In this document: in pieces, positions 11,390 to 15,924 of the stretch
How the letters are laid out: each line of letters begins with the position of its first letter
Position numbering within the stretch: position 1 is the stretch's first letter
Position numbers and translations under genes: made by a program
Notes under the pieces: model-generated
Database searches by the model: none
The model's input: the letters and a program-made list of their open reading frames with translations, nothing else
What the model was told of the DNA's origin: nothing
NCBI GenBank assembly: GCA_043798795.1
Contig: JAZDOJ010000033.1
Span: 1-51,998 of the forward strand
Direction: 5' to 3'
Origin: Candidatus Omnitrophota bacterium
GTDB lineage: Bacteria > Omnitrophota > Gorgyraeia > Gygaellales > Profunditerraquicolaceae
DNA length: 51,998 bases

Positions 11390-11493
11390 CTTGACACGAA
11401 ATCGACGACAGATAAAAGGAAGCATTTCGTGTCAAGTAAATTCGCACATAAACTTACTCACACTGTCGTGTTCGTAAGTTTAGTGCTCATTTA
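11390..11493. repeat. Double-hairpin element A1 abutting the rpsG ATG
   Basis: Hairpin 1 CTTGACACGAAAT (11390-11402)/ATTTCGTGTCAAG (11424-11436); hairpin 2 spans 11437-11493; near-identical to A2 and A3. Confidence 0.92.
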
Positions 11494-11964
11494 ATGAGAA
11501 GAAGAAAAGCACAGGAAAAAGTCGTATTGCCTGATCCGAAATTCAACAGTGTAATCGTGGCCAAGTTTATCAATATGGTGATGCTGGAAGGCAAGAAGGC
11601 CATCGCCGAAAGGATGGTTTACGGCGCCCTCGAATTAGTCAAGAAACAGCTTAACGAAGTTGACGTGCAGAAGGTCTTTCATAAAGCCCTGGAAAATGCA
11701 AGGCCTCGGCTTGAAGTGAAACCCCGGCGCGTGGGAGGGGCGACCTATCAGGTCCCCATTGAAGTGCGCCAGGAACGGGGAACGTCCATTGCCTTGCGCT
11801 GGATCAGGGACTTTGCCAAAAATAAAAAGGGCCGTTCCATGAAGGAAAAACTTGCAGAGGAGATCATCGCCGCCTATAAAGGGGAAGGATCGACTATTAA
11901 GAAAAGAGACGATACGCATAAAATGGCGGAGTCCAATAAGGCCTTCGCGCATTTTAGATGGTAG
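11494..11964 (+). CDS. rpsG: 30S ribosomal protein S7
   Basis: [26 protein letters not shown]. Confidence 0.99.
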
Positions 11965-11965
11965 G

Positions 11966-14065
11966 ATGAACAGAAAAATACCACTAGACAAAATCAGGAA
12001 TATCGGAATCATCGCGCATATCGATGCCGGCAAGACCACCACCACCGAGCGCGTGCTTTTTTACACGGGCCGGACGTATAAGATCGGCGAAGTGGATGAG
12101 GGGACGGCCACGATGGACTGGATGGTCCAGGAGCAGGAGAGGGGGATTACCATCACCGCGGCCTGCACCACCTGCCAGTGGCACGATTTCAGCATAAATA
12201 TTATCGATACGCCAGGGCACGTGGATTTTACCATTGAGGTGGAAAGGTCCCTGAAGGTCTTAGACGGAGCGGTCGTCGTCTTTTGCGGAGTCGGAGGGGT
12301 GGAGCCGCAGTCAGAAACTGTCTGGCGTCAGGCAGACCGCTACGGGGTTCCCCGCATCGCCTTTGTGAATAAAATGGATAGAACCGGTGCCAATTTGTCG
12401 GATACCATTATCCAGATGCATAAGAAATTAGGAGCGAATGCCGCGGCGATCCAGTTGCCTTTTTTTCAGAATGATAAATTAGAAGGCATCATCGACCTCG
12501 TGGAGGAAAAATTGATTGTCTATAAAGACGAGGCGGGCGTGGAGAGGCAAGTTTTAAAAACTCCCGATGACTTAAAGACAGTTGTCCATCACGAGCGCGA
12601 CAGGCTCATGGAGAAAATCGCTGAAGTGGATGAGTTGATTATGGATGCTTTTGTGCATGCCAAGAAAATAGAGGTGGCGGATATCAAGGCTGCCATTCGG
12701 CGAACCGTGCTCCAGAATAAATTCGTGCCTGTTTTGTGCGGAGCGTCTCTTAAGAATAAAGGGATTCAGCTTTTGCTGGATGCGATCTGCGATTATTTGC
12801 CTTCACCGCATGACGTGCCTCCCATCAAGGGGACGAATCCTGATACTGGCGAATTTGAGGAGATCCAGGCCCAGGATAAGGCCCCGTTTTCTGCCCTTTG
12901 TTTTAAAGTAACGACAGATCCTTACGTGGGAAGGCTCAATTATGTCCGTGTTTATTCAGGCACCATAAAGAGCGGAGATTTTGTCTGGAATGCCTCCAAG
13001 AGAGTCAAAGAGCGCGTGAGCAAATTGCTGAGGATGCATGCCAACCGGCAGGAAGCGATCGAAAGTGTGCATACGGGAAATATCGCGGCTGTCGTGGGCC
13101 TCAAAGAAACCAAGACAGGGGATACGTTATGCACCCAAAACACTCCTATATTAATAGAGTCCATCCGATTTCCGGAGCCGGTCATCCAGCAGGCCATTGA
13201 ACCAAAATCCAAACAGGACCAGGAGCGCTTAGGCATGTCTTTACATAAATTAGCAGAGGAGGATCCTTCTTTTCGGGTCACCTATAATCATGAAACAGGA
13301 GAAACGATCATATCGGGCATGGGGCAGTTGCATCTGGAGGTAGCTATCGACAGGATTTTAAGGGAGTTTAATGTTGAGGCGCAGGTTGGTTCTCCTCAGG
13401 TGGCTTATCGGGAGACCATCACCAAGAAGGTGGTGGCTACGGGAAAATTTATCCAGCAAAGCGGCGGGCATGGTCAATACGGCCACGTCGTTTTAGAGAT
13501 GCAGCCTCAGGAAATGCCGGGATTAGGCATTACTTTCGAAGAGAAGATAAAAAGCGGAGCCATCCCCCGCGAATTCATTTCATCTGTAGAGGATGGAGTG
13601 CTGGGAGCTGCTAAGAGCGGCTGTCTCGTGGGGTATCCGGTGACGGACGTCAAGGTGGTCTTGACAGACGGTTCCTACCACGAGGTGGATTCATCCGAAA
13701 TGAGTTTTCAGATGGCTGCTGCGATAGCTTTCAACGAAGGATTAAAAAAAGCAGGCTCCATATTGCTTGAGCCGATTATGGATATTGAGGTGATCGTGCC
13801 GGAAGAGTACATGGGCACGGTGATTGGTGACTTGAATGCCAGGCGCGCCAAAATCGTTTCCCTCGCCCAGCGGGGCAATGTCCGCGTCATCCGCGCTTAC
13901 GTTGCGTTAGGCGAGATGTTTAATTATGCAACGGCTTCAAGATCCTTGACCCAAGGACGCGCATCCTATACAATGGAGCCCTCGTTTTACGCCGAGGTGC
14001 CTTCACATATAGCAGAAAAAATCATCGGAGGTTTTTCCACAGCAGGCACAAGGAAAACTTTTTGA
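11966..14065 (+). CDS. fusA: Elongation factor G (start corrected to ATG 11966)
   Basis: [34 protein letters not shown]; the track start at 11852 overlaps rpsG. Confidence 0.98.
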
Positions 14066-14095
14066 GTGAGGGTTTAAAGATGAAGGAGGTTTTAC

Positions 14096-15301
14096 ATGGC
14101 TAAAGAGAAATTTGTTAGGTCAAAACCGCATGTGAACATCGGCACGATTGGCCACATCGACCACGGTAAGACGCTTCTGACGACTTGCATCACCCACGTG
14201 CTCGCCAAATTAGGCAAGGCCCAGGCGCGGGAATACGCGGATATCGCCAAGGGCGGTACCGTCAGAGACGAGACCAAGGTCGTTACCATATCGGTCGCCC
14301 ATGTCGAATACGAATCCGACGCGCGCCACTATGCGCACATCGACTGTCCGGGACATGCGGACTATATCAAAAACATGATCACCGGTGCGGCCCAGATGGA
14401 TGGCGCGATCTTGGTGGTTTCTGCCGCAGACGGACCCATGCCTCAGACAAGAGAGCATATCCTCCTGGCTCGGCAAGTCAACGTTCCCTCGATGGTCGTC
14501 TTCTTGAACAAGATCGACGTGGTTTCAGACAAGGAATTGATTGACCTCGTTGAGATGGAAGTCAGGGACCTGTTAACAAAATACGGTTTTCCCGGAGACA
14601 AGACCCCCATCATCAAGGGGAGCGCTTTGAAAGCCATGCAGGCCGGTGGGGATCCCAATAATGAGGATTGTAAACCCATTCTGGAACTCATAAAGGCCTG
14701 TGACGAGTTTATCCCCCTTCCGGTCCGAGATATGGACAAGCCTTTCCTTATGGCCGTGGAAGATGTTTTCAGCATCGAAGGCCGGGGTACCGTCGGAACC
14801 GGCAGGATCGAGCGCGGAAAAGTAAAAATCGGCGAAGAGGTGGAGTTGGTGGGATTGAGGCCCGAGACCAAGAAGACCGTCGTGACCGGAATTGAAATGT
14901 TCCGCAAGCTTCTGGATGAAGGCCATGCCGGAGACAACGTCGGGTTGCTTTTGAGGGGCGTTGATAAGAATCAGATCGAGCGCGGTATGGTTATCGCCGC
15001 ACCCAAATCCATTACGCCTCATACCAAGTTTAAAACCCAGGTTTACATCCTGACCAAAGAAGAGGGCGGAAGGCACACGCCTTTCTTCAAGGGTTATCGG
15101 CCGCAATTCTATTTCCGCACCACGGACGTTACGGGAAGCGTGACTTTGCCTGAGGGGGTGGAAATGGTGATGCCCGGAGATAACGTGAACCTGGAAGTTG
15201 AATTGATTATACCTATCGCGATGGAAAAGGAATCACGTTTTGCCATACGCGAAGGCGGGCATACCGTCGGGGCTGGTGTGGTTACGGAGGTTATAGCGTA
15301 G
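14096..15301 (+). CDS. tuf: Elongation factor Tu with non-canonical switch I
   Basis: [45 protein letters not shown]. Confidence 0.99.
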
Positions 15302-15313
15302 TAAGAGGAGTTA

Positions 15314-15422
15314 TATCCTTGACACGAAACCGACGATAGGTAAACGGAACCTTACGTGTCAAGGATAAATTCGCACATAAACTTACTCACACTGTCGTGT
15401 TCGTAAGCTTAGTGCTCATTTA
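15314..15422. repeat. Double-hairpin element A2 abutting the rpsJ ATG
   Basis: 13-bp stem TATCCTTGACACG (15314-15326)/CGTGTCAAGGATA (15355-15367); hairpin 2 spans 15366-15422. Confidence 0.92.
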
Positions 15423-15722
15423 ATGCAAAAAATTAGAATCAAATTAAAAGCCTACGACCATCGCCTTTTGGATCAGGCGGTCGAAGAAATCGTTGAGACG
15501 GCGCGGCGCACAGGGGCACGCATTTGCGGGCCGGTCCCTCTTCCTACAAAAAGGGAAGTTTACACGGTCTTGCGCTCTCCGGTGATTGATAAGAAGTCAC
15601 GGGAGCAGTTTGAGCTGTCCACGCACAAACGCCTCATCGATATCTTAGAGCCGACCTCCAAGACGATTGATTCTTTGAGAAAACTGAATCTACCCGCAGG
15701 GGTAGATGCTGAAATTAAGTGA
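15423..15722 (+). CDS. rpsJ: 30S ribosomal protein S10
   Basis: [37 protein letters not shown]. Confidence 0.99.
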
Positions 15723-15817
15723 GGCCATAACTTATGGAGCACGGCACGCGGCTTTATCGGATCAGCCGGTGTGCCGCTTCTGCGGCAAGTGCGACATAAG
15801 TTACTTGGCCGAACTTA
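15716..15817. repeat. Palindromic element B2 (nested tandem-GA hairpin) overlapping the rpsJ stop
   Basis: TAAGT-GA-GGCCA-TAACTTATG-GA-GCAC ... GTGC-GA-CATAAGTTA-CT-TGGCC-GA-ACTTA with GC-rich inner hairpins. Confidence 0.8.
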
Positions 15818-15924
15818 TCCTTGCCACGAAACCGACGACAGGCAAACGGAATCTTTCGTGGCAAGGATTAATTCGCACATAAACTTACTTACACTGTCGT
15901 GTTCGTAAGTTTAGTGCTCATTAA
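15817..15924. repeat. Double-hairpin element A3 ending 2 nt before the rplC ATG
   Basis: 15-bp perfect stem ATCCTTGCCACGAAA (15817-15831)/TTTCGTGGCAAGGAT (15854-15868); hairpin 2 spans 15868-15924. Confidence 0.92.

Follow-up and report, generated by a model that had tools for sequence, protein, structure and literature searches.

A mosaic palindromic repeat, probably a non-autonomous mobile element, at the stop and start codons of ribosomal-protein genes in Candidatus Omnitrophota

The stretch of DNA considered here (the window) comprises 51,998 nucleotides (nt) of contig JAZDOJ010000033.1 from a Candidatus Omnitrophota bacterium (assembly GCA_043798795.1) and carries the genes rpsL, rpsG, fusA, tuf, rpsJ and rplC in that order, with S12, S7, EF-Tu, S10 and L3 confirmed by Pfam. 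Three of the intervening spacers, rpsL-rpsG, tuf-rpsJ and rpsJ-rplC, are occupied by structured elements, here named A1, A2 and A3, which a preliminary description made from the sequence alone had read either as a cis-regulatory RNA common to three ribosomal-protein cistrons or as a small palindromic mobile element at translation starts. The copy number, the polymorphism between strains and the positions abutting start codons all support the second reading. A1, A2 and A3 are probably copies of a non-autonomous, mosaic, palindromic interspersed repeat resembling BOX elements, REPINs and MITEs (miniature transposable elements with inverted repeats), and this repeat is widespread in Candidatus Omnitrophota. 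It is a modular palindrome present in many copies, its sites of occurrence are polymorphic among strains as well as among congeners, and it abuts stop and start codons, almost always in one polarity.

Public metagenome contigs aligned to positions 10900-16300 of the window reveal both filled and empty forms of these junctions. A 280-nt contig from run X2, which differs from the window by 1 mismatch on one side and 3 on the other, joins position 11374 to position 11493 and skips exactly the 118 nt of A1. Three letters at this junction fit either side, a 3-nt overlap seen in one pair only. Where A1 is missing, the stop codon of rpsL runs into the start codon of rpsG in the shared sequence ATGA. 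In contigs of runs X1 and X2, whose flanks show 1 and 4 mismatches, positions 15301-15437 are replaced by 31 letters without A2, which provide a short spacer, a Shine-Dalgarno-like motif and a synonymous start of rpsJ. The filled form of the third site is found in a 245-nt contig of run X3 that spans positions 15645-15889 with 0 mismatches, from rpsJ into the hairpins of A3. This contig bridges gene and element, and related elements are found at junctions of these kinds in dozens of assemblies made independently; it is thus vanishingly unlikely that a repeat was collapsed or pasted into the operon during assembly, a concern that the preliminary description had raised.

The comparison with related genomes extends this pattern. 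In G001, a congener of the genome that holds the window (G000), S10 is 97% and EF-Tu 95% identical to the G000 proteins. Full elements lie in the rpsL-rpsG, rpsG-fusA, rplW-rplB and rpsS-rplV spacers of G001 and partial ones in fusA-tuf and tuf-rpsJ, whereas the G000 spacers at rpsG-fusA, rplW-rplB and rpsS-rplV measure 1, -1 and 3 nt; the rpsJ-rplC spacer of G001 is unrelated to A3. The rpsJ locus was fetched from 29 relatives, and in the 28 with a readable rpsJ-rplC spacer a full element is present in 3 (G002, G015 and G028) and a remnant consisting of left and middle modules in 1 (G011), while the spacer is 2-26 nt long in 13. The element has been gained and lost at the DNA level over the time scale that separates strains and congeners. 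Copies are 86-91% alike within G000 and 88-95% alike among the four in G001, and the rpsL-rpsG copies of the two genomes are 68% alike with different middle hairpins, a pattern of sequence likeness that points to recent amplification within each genome or to concerted evolution. Strain polymorphism, congener difference, patchy occupancy and within-genome likeness are, taken together, not the behaviour of a conserved operon regulator. The repeat is small, non-coding, multi-copy and polymorphic for presence and absence, as MITEs are, and the open reading frame that begins at an ATG of the left unit differs from copy to copy. A relay frame running from this ATG, or from a TAATG at A1, was rejected, the frames ending differently between copies and A2 having none.

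Two side observations concern ribosomal-protein spacers in G001. At the ribosomal-protein locus of that genome (L184, G001:C23), the spacers rplB-rpsS, rplV-rpsC, rpsN-rpsH, rplN-rplX and rpsJ-rplC hold unrelated structured or low-complexity inserts of 97-151 nt, and the same five spacers in G000 measure 0-21 nt; other repeat families therefore also appear to colonise these junctions. At rplW-rplB of the same locus, the rplW frame enters the left end of the element, and the repeat supplies the last three codons and the stop.

The features of the window that bear on the element, and the genes that adjoin it, are as follows.

11375 to 11492, plus strand: A1, a truncated element (middle hairpin and right unit), delimited as the 118 nt missing from the near-identical contig, with a register shift of up to 3 nt possible.
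11390 to 11436, plus strand: middle hairpin (H1) of A1, with a 13-bp stem, from folding; this module is variable and genome-specific.
11437 to 11493, plus strand: unit hairpin of A1, of the right-end type (...GTGC-TC-ATTTA), matched by covariance model R1 at 11434-11496 with 82.4 bits.
15302 to 15422, plus strand: A2, truncated, between the tuf stop and the rpsJ ATG, with H1 at about 15316-15365 and the unit hairpin at 15366-15422, from folding and the covariance model.
15716 to 15817, minus strand: left unit (H0) of A3, an inverted copy of the unit hairpin, matched by R1 at 15713-15820 on the minus strand with 48.3 bits (E 5e-7).
15818 to 15867, plus strand: middle hairpin (H1) of A3, from folding.
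15868 to 15924, plus strand: right unit hairpin of A3, ending 2 nt before the rplC ATG, matched by R1 at 15865-15927 with 81.3 bits.
434 to 495, minus strand: a unit of the left-end type (...TCACTTA) between two tRNA genes (192-264 and 541-611) and antisense to both, matched by R1 with 46.7 bits.
11008 to 11379, plus strand: rpsL (S12), upstream of A1, its TAA stop within the left edge of the insertion (Pfam PF00164, E 1.5e-41).
11494 to 11964, plus strand: rpsG (S7), downstream of A1 (PF00177, E 2.4e-59).
15423 to 15722, plus strand: rpsJ (S10), downstream of A2 and upstream of A3 (PF00338, E 4e-37).
15927 to 16559, plus strand: rplC (L3), downstream of A3 (PF00297, E 1.7e-19).

The presence of three structured copies at these places, as reported at the outset, is borne out by their coordinates, by a mutual identity of 86-91% in global alignment, by BLAST of A2 against its own genome (E 1e-38 and 4e-37 for the other two copies) and by plus-strand folding, in which the three copies reach z = -4.3, -5.0 and -6.3 and 0 of 200 shuffles fold as well. 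Their distances to the start codon also agree with those first given: A1 ends 0 nt before the ATG at 11494, with the final paired base of its unit hairpin at position -1, A2 ends 0 nt before the ATG at 15423 and A3 ends 2 nt before the ATG at 15927. The compensatory changes named then are present in the sequence, one set of pairs changing from TTGACACG/CGTGTCAA to TTGCCACG/CGTGGCAA and others from TAAAT/ATTTA to TTAAT/ATTAA and from ATC..GAT to ACC..GGT. A3 is longer than first described and begins at the rpsJ stop codon with a third hairpin (15716-15817) that is an inverted form of the second hairpin of the earlier drawing. An Rfam 15 cmscan at gathering thresholds finds two tRNAs alone in the window and no match for the elements, and at E<=10 it returns chance-level matches only in the region 11300-16000, in keeping with the preliminary description, which did not recognise the repeat as a known family.

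A covariance model was built from 34 aligned copies of G000 and related genomes, and 150 matches were then aligned to it. The repeat unit that emerges is an imperfect hairpin of about 63 nt with 22 pairs. A 5-bp A/U-rich helix forms its base; above this come a UC/UC 2x2 loop, a second helix of 4 bp, a bulge of 1-2 nt, a 9-bp helix (NNAACTTAC/GTAAGTTNN) and a variable tip. The conserved flanks belong to the unit, as the TNAAT of TNAATTC pairs with the ATTNA of TCATTNA across the UC/UC loop; the second hairpin of the preliminary description thus exists and is longer than drawn there by this outer pairing. The pair at the variable N is AU in 61 copies, UA in 56 and CG in 12, and the adjacent pair is AU in 121 or GC in 21. 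In all, 94% of 3137 cells are paired and 18 of the 22 pairs vary on both sides; none of 500 shuffles does as well, and when the pairing is slid as a control 28-40% of cells pair. Across 145 distinct sequences, the asymmetric UC/UC loops show little or no variation.

The full element is an inverted pair of these units around a variable middle hairpin. Its left unit is inverted and reads TAAGTGAGG..., and its right unit reads ...GCTCATTNA. Left and right units form two subtypes, which, read in unit orientation, are ...TCACTTA for the left type and ...TCATTNA for the right type, and the consistency of these subtypes indicates that the element has defined left and right ends. Many right units have a second match to the unit model some 100 nt upstream, on the opposite strand, as at 15713-15820 (minus) and 15865-15927 (plus), and terminal inverted repeats of the kind that characterise MITEs are found in A3, at four other loci of G000 and at many loci in other genomes. 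A3, at 15716-15924, is a full element; the first bases of its left unit overlap the rpsJ stop codon, and the loop of that unit carries a nested insert of about 60 nt. In A1 and A2 the left unit is lost and its first bases are retained. The forms seen are therefore full (A3 and the G001 copies), middle plus right (A1 and A2), and left plus middle (rpsJ-rplC of G011 and fusA-tuf of G001).

The nested insert is an observation in its own right. In the window it lies at 15733-15797, is GC-rich and has two small hairpins of its own. It is also present in spacers of G001 and G011 and at G000:C15:4314-4419, and is conserved between genera; contigs of run X3 carry versions of the left unit without it. 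Shorter junctions that resemble the left end are seen as well. At 14063-14098 (fusA-tuf) and 22532-22552 (rpsH-rplF), a stop codon is followed by GTGAGGG, about 8 nt and an ATG, with the same 8 nt on both occasions, and at G000:C67:82120 a left-end motif is joined directly to a right-end motif. Such short junctions may be footprints of the element or a preferred target.

The repeat is far more numerous than the three copies first reported. G000 (1.22 Mb, 93.75% complete) yields 27 model matches at E<=1, which correspond to about 20 loci, before many kinds of genes, beside tRNAs and, in one case, as a tandem pair. At G000:C33:180-451, each of two tandem long-looped units precedes an opposite-strand sequence that resembles the 5' half of a tRNA, and this region may be repeat-rich or a hot spot of integration. 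In a survey of 41 genomes of the order, G000 included, units are present in 31 and absent in 10. Counts per genome, which are those among the 130 candidates scored in each and hence lower bounds, range from 0 to at least 51, the dense genomes being of 0.9-1.2 Mb. When 185,579 species genomes were scanned for an exact pattern, at least 116 stretches were found, and among the 80 matches listed 60 are titled Omnitrophota or Omnitrophica, 15 are labelled Planctomycetales/Planctomycetia or are unnamed metagenome-assembled genomes (MAGs), 2 are otherwise-labelled MAG contigs with full units, and 3 (Ketobacter, Collinsella and Paludibacter) fit the pattern and not the profile and are due to chance. 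The repeat thus appears, among the matches listed, to be almost confined to Omnitrophota. A pattern scan of viral contigs for a viral carrier gave 0 matches, and nothing relevant was found in print on repeats of Omnitrophota.

The position of the units relative to genes is distinctive. Among 130 right-type units pooled from G000, its relatives and the loci of the pattern scan, a start codon (48 ATG and 1 GTG) follows 49 at -1 to 4 nt past the last paired base and another 36 have a Shine-Dalgarno core that begins at -2 to 5 nt past it, followed by the start, so that 85 of the 130 abut a start codon or a Shine-Dalgarno sequence. A start codon lies at greater distance in 7, and 38 have no start within 45 nt, several of these preceding promoter-like, terminator-like or tRNA sequence. 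Between co-directional genes 67 units are sense and 12 antisense (by crude open reading frame calls), and left-type units show the mirror arrangement in 8 of 11 cases; in the usual polarity, the stop codon upstream meets the left end, and the right end meets the AUG or Shine-Dalgarno sequence of the gene downstream. Many of the genes that follow a unit serve translation or are otherwise highly expressed: all 16 ribosomal proteins tested, EF-G and GroEL are confirmed by Pfam, and further genes of the translation type are recognised by their N-terminus only. Radical-SAM-like, CDP-alcohol-transferase-like, DnaK-like and TpiA-like genes and many more also occur downstream.

At two sites, the element separates a good Shine-Dalgarno sequence from the AUG of an essential gene. 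AAGAGG (11365-11370) precedes the ATG of rpsG by 5 nt in the A1-less allele and by 123 nt in the window, and no Shine-Dalgarno motif is found in the right arm of A1 or near the ATG. Where A2 is missing, rpsJ is preceded by a Shine-Dalgarno sequence of the AAAGGA type, and rpsJ is split in the same manner in the window. An initiation region of an essential gene that is divided by a structured insert of 115 nt evidently still works. In relatives without the element, rpsJ leaders are often A-rich and have no Shine-Dalgarno sequence; thus, initiation independent of this sequence may be common in the lineage.

These findings are consistent with the following history. The element would spread by copy-and-paste, catalysed in trans by an enzyme encoded elsewhere, with insertion possibly accompanied by a 3-bp target duplication, and internal deletions of the full element would give rise to truncated forms such as A1 and A2. 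Either oriented insertion or selection against reversed copies would maintain its polarity, since a reversed element would put an ATG right after the upstream stop and a CCUC sequence, resembling an anti-Shine-Dalgarno sequence, beside the downstream start. In the mRNA the element would form hairpins, and it is presumably transcribed together with the operon, because it contains no promoter or terminator signals: a plus-strand scan found no such sites in the elements, with totals at the level of shuffles (5 vs 5.4 and 9 vs 5.9). A TTGACA in the middle hairpin was considered as a promoter and rejected, there being no -10 partner at 16-18 nt on the plus strand. RNA run X15 (contigs only, 20 records) gives no cover over A1 or A3, and one of its contigs stops matching at 15300; it is uninformative either way.

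The fate of such hairpins in the mRNA may be related to RNase III. The intercistronic sites of phage T7 are RNase III processing sites. The RNase III domain PF14622 was found in 0 of the 41 genomes of the order, which are MAGs (20 of them at least 90% complete), while 8 of 14 controls were positive; PF00636 was likewise not found in G000. Because the genomes are MAGs, these negatives are read as not found and not as absent. Processing by RNase III, by analogy with the Correia elements, was accordingly set aside as the leading mechanism, and a role of the enzyme of that kind is unlikely. The apparent lack of RNase III in the order may instead make long hairpins in mRNA harmless and would let 22-bp hairpins persist in essential messages.

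Several observations weigh against the reading of the element as a non-autonomous mobile repeat. The 3-nt target duplication is drawn from the single precise filled/empty pair, other comparisons being too diverged, and the A1-less allele could equally reflect precise loss. The tight spacing to starts and the strong polarity exceed what a neutral repeat needs. The tuf-rpsJ copy looks orthologous between G000 and G001 (81%), and unit identity across families of the order is 80-92%, so that some copies persist and may be selected. In the distal helix, G.U pairs outnumber A.C (42 vs 9), but 28 of the G.U lie at a single pair. No autonomous parent or transposase with the same ends was found in G000 or in the loci examined, in a search that was not exhaustive, and opposed units 1.1-2.4 kb apart (L088, L098 and L107), considered as candidate parents, enclose ordinary genes (rpoA-like, hydrolase-like and others). 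Nor does the repeat track the Pfam family Y1_Tnp, genes for which occur in 31 of the 41 genomes, comprising 25 of the 31 with units and 6 of the 10 without; units were sought beside Y1_Tnp genes at 8 loci, with one weak match (E 0.014). These last results bear equally on the idea that the repeat is a REPIN mobilised by a RAYT, the REP-associated Y1 (HUH) transposase, for which the frequency of Y1_Tnp in the order might otherwise speak. The two Y1 (IS200-like) genes of G000 (C47:22405-22659 and C12:19284-19478) are broken fragments, both flanked by inverted copies of a different repeat of about 13 nt, and G023 and G032 have 21 and 48 units without any Y1_Tnp. The unit, at about 63 nt, is also longer than REPs, which measure 20-40 nt. 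Two inverted hairpin units around a spacer are the REPIN layout, as the available portions of the descriptions give it (PMC3116915, PMC3337134); with no co-occurrence, no flanking units at the 8 loci searched beyond the one weak match, and fragmentary copies in G000, a RAYT or other Y1 transposase was rejected as the mobiliser, and this origin is improbable.

There is a modest chance that the element, although it arrives by transposition, is a domesticated RNA module whose right unit is kept for its action in mRNA. It could act as a 5' stabiliser of the downstream cistron, or as a ribosome-positioning or standby hairpin independent of the Shine-Dalgarno sequence, whose stable helix would lie 7-10 nt upstream of the AUG. 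The 85 right-type units that directly precede a start or a Shine-Dalgarno sequence and start, the polarity of 67 to 12, the enrichment for highly expressed genes, the near-invariant asymmetric loops, and the Shine-Dalgarno sequences present before rpsG and rpsJ only in alleles without A1 and A2 are all as such a module predicts. Near-identical strains nevertheless lack the element at both sites, 10 of 41 relatives have no unit at all, and 38 of the 130 units have no gene start nearby. The base pairs lean the same way. A stem selected as RNA would normally accept G.U far more than A.C, whereas the two main helices, with 1839 Watson-Crick cells, show 13 G.U and 19 A.C and hence no G.U excess; the basal A/U helix covaries, yet is missing from the predicted RNA folds of the window copies, which fits symmetry in DNA better. 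That the symmetry of the helices is maintained at the DNA level is suggestive only, and the G.U pattern (no excess in the main helices, and a distal excess with much of it at one pair) was judged not decisive for the strand of function. The more specific and rather doubtful proposal that the right-end hairpin is a portable initiation device, the helix 7-10 nt upstream of the AUG positioning or parking the 30S subunit without a Shine-Dalgarno sequence, would place that helix where the duplex of Shine-Dalgarno and anti-Shine-Dalgarno sequences normally lies. If so, the repeat could be inserted between the Shine-Dalgarno sequence and the AUG of essential genes (rpsG and rpsJ) with expression kept, and would have come to punctuate operons across the phylum, in a lineage that seemingly lacks RNase III. 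A dedicated autoregulatory leader, with feedback sites of the S7, L4 or S10 type common to the three cistrons, is by contrast very improbable. The elements lie where E. coli has its feedback sites for S7 and L4, and many copies in other genomes also precede ribosomal-protein genes; however, the unit also precedes dozens of unrelated genes and adjoins tRNAs, promoters and terminators, the str and S10 junctions are empty in near-identical strains and in most relatives, and the copy number varies from none to at least 51 among the 41 genomes. No curated Rfam leader family matches, and occupancy of orthologous sites is patchy and not conserved. The cis-regulatory alternative of the preliminary description therefore does not stand, and the mobile repeat remains the preferred reading.

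Comparison with known systems places the element among small interspersed repeats. The closest architecture is that of the BOX elements of Streptococcus pneumoniae and S. suis, which, in the available text of PMC3049150, have the form boxA-boxB(n)-boxC with end modules that pair around a variable middle, and which are small, non-coding, multi-copy, gene-adjacent, co-transcribed, predicted to form stem-loops and variable between strains, with no dedicated transposase that is certain. The present element is likewise modular, with two ends that pair with each other around a variable middle and modules that can be absent. Unlike BOX as that text presents it, each end module is a long hairpin, one and the same unit forms both ends in inverted orientation, the middle is a single hairpin and not a tandem array, and a strict polarity abuts stop and start codons in another phylum. 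No sequence relation to BOX was noticed, though no formal comparison was made.

REPs lie mostly after genes and in either orientation, whereas the repeat described here stands before starts in one polarity. Its unit of about 63 nt is not a short REP, and no RAYT association was found. Beyond the paired layout, it shares with REPINs and BIMEs, as far as the available portions of the sources describe them, the greater likeness of copies within than between genomes (PMC3116915, PMC3337134). The empty rpsL-rpsG site, a single case, holds no TA dinucleotide. The CREE/NEMIS (Correia) elements of Neisseria, in contrast, duplicate TA. As characterised in the accessible part of PMC2649163, those elements resemble the present one in being 100-260 nt long, in having inverted ends, in lying beside or between genes and in being co-transcribed and strain-polymorphic; they can bind RNase III and IHF and can create promoters. 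The elements here differ in having no promoter-like site on the sense strand and in hosts in which RNase III was not found (PF14622 0/41; PF00636 0/1). A term search of the available text of PMC10969869 finds no mention of start codons, stop codons or ribosome binding. The structured insert between the Shine-Dalgarno sequence and the start codon of an expressed gene has a further parallel that is not a repeat. Gene 38 of phage T4 has a split ribosome-binding site, in which a hairpin is looped out between the Shine-Dalgarno sequence and the AUG. The inserts here differ from it in that they measure 115-210 nt, contain two or three long hairpins and are part of a mobile repeat.

Proteobacteria, neisseriae and streptococci are known to carry small interspersed palindromic repeats, and Omnitrophota is a phylum of ultra-small, uncultivated bacteria. 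The element described here represents a new repeat family and an unusual variant of a known element type, set apart by the length of its unit, its polarity, the lack of a RAYT link and its phylum. Its oddities are that it lies in one polarity exactly between a stop and the next start and that it favours ribosomal-protein and other highly expressed operons. The covariance model allows annotators to mask these elements and so to avoid confusion with riboswitches or leaders. The element would gain in interest should its right-end hairpin turn out to sustain initiation where no Shine-Dalgarno sequence is present. Together, the filled and empty alleles constitute a natural experiment on how much structure is tolerated in a bacterial initiation region, and the apparent lack of RNase III across the order, if confirmed, may be what permits such elements.

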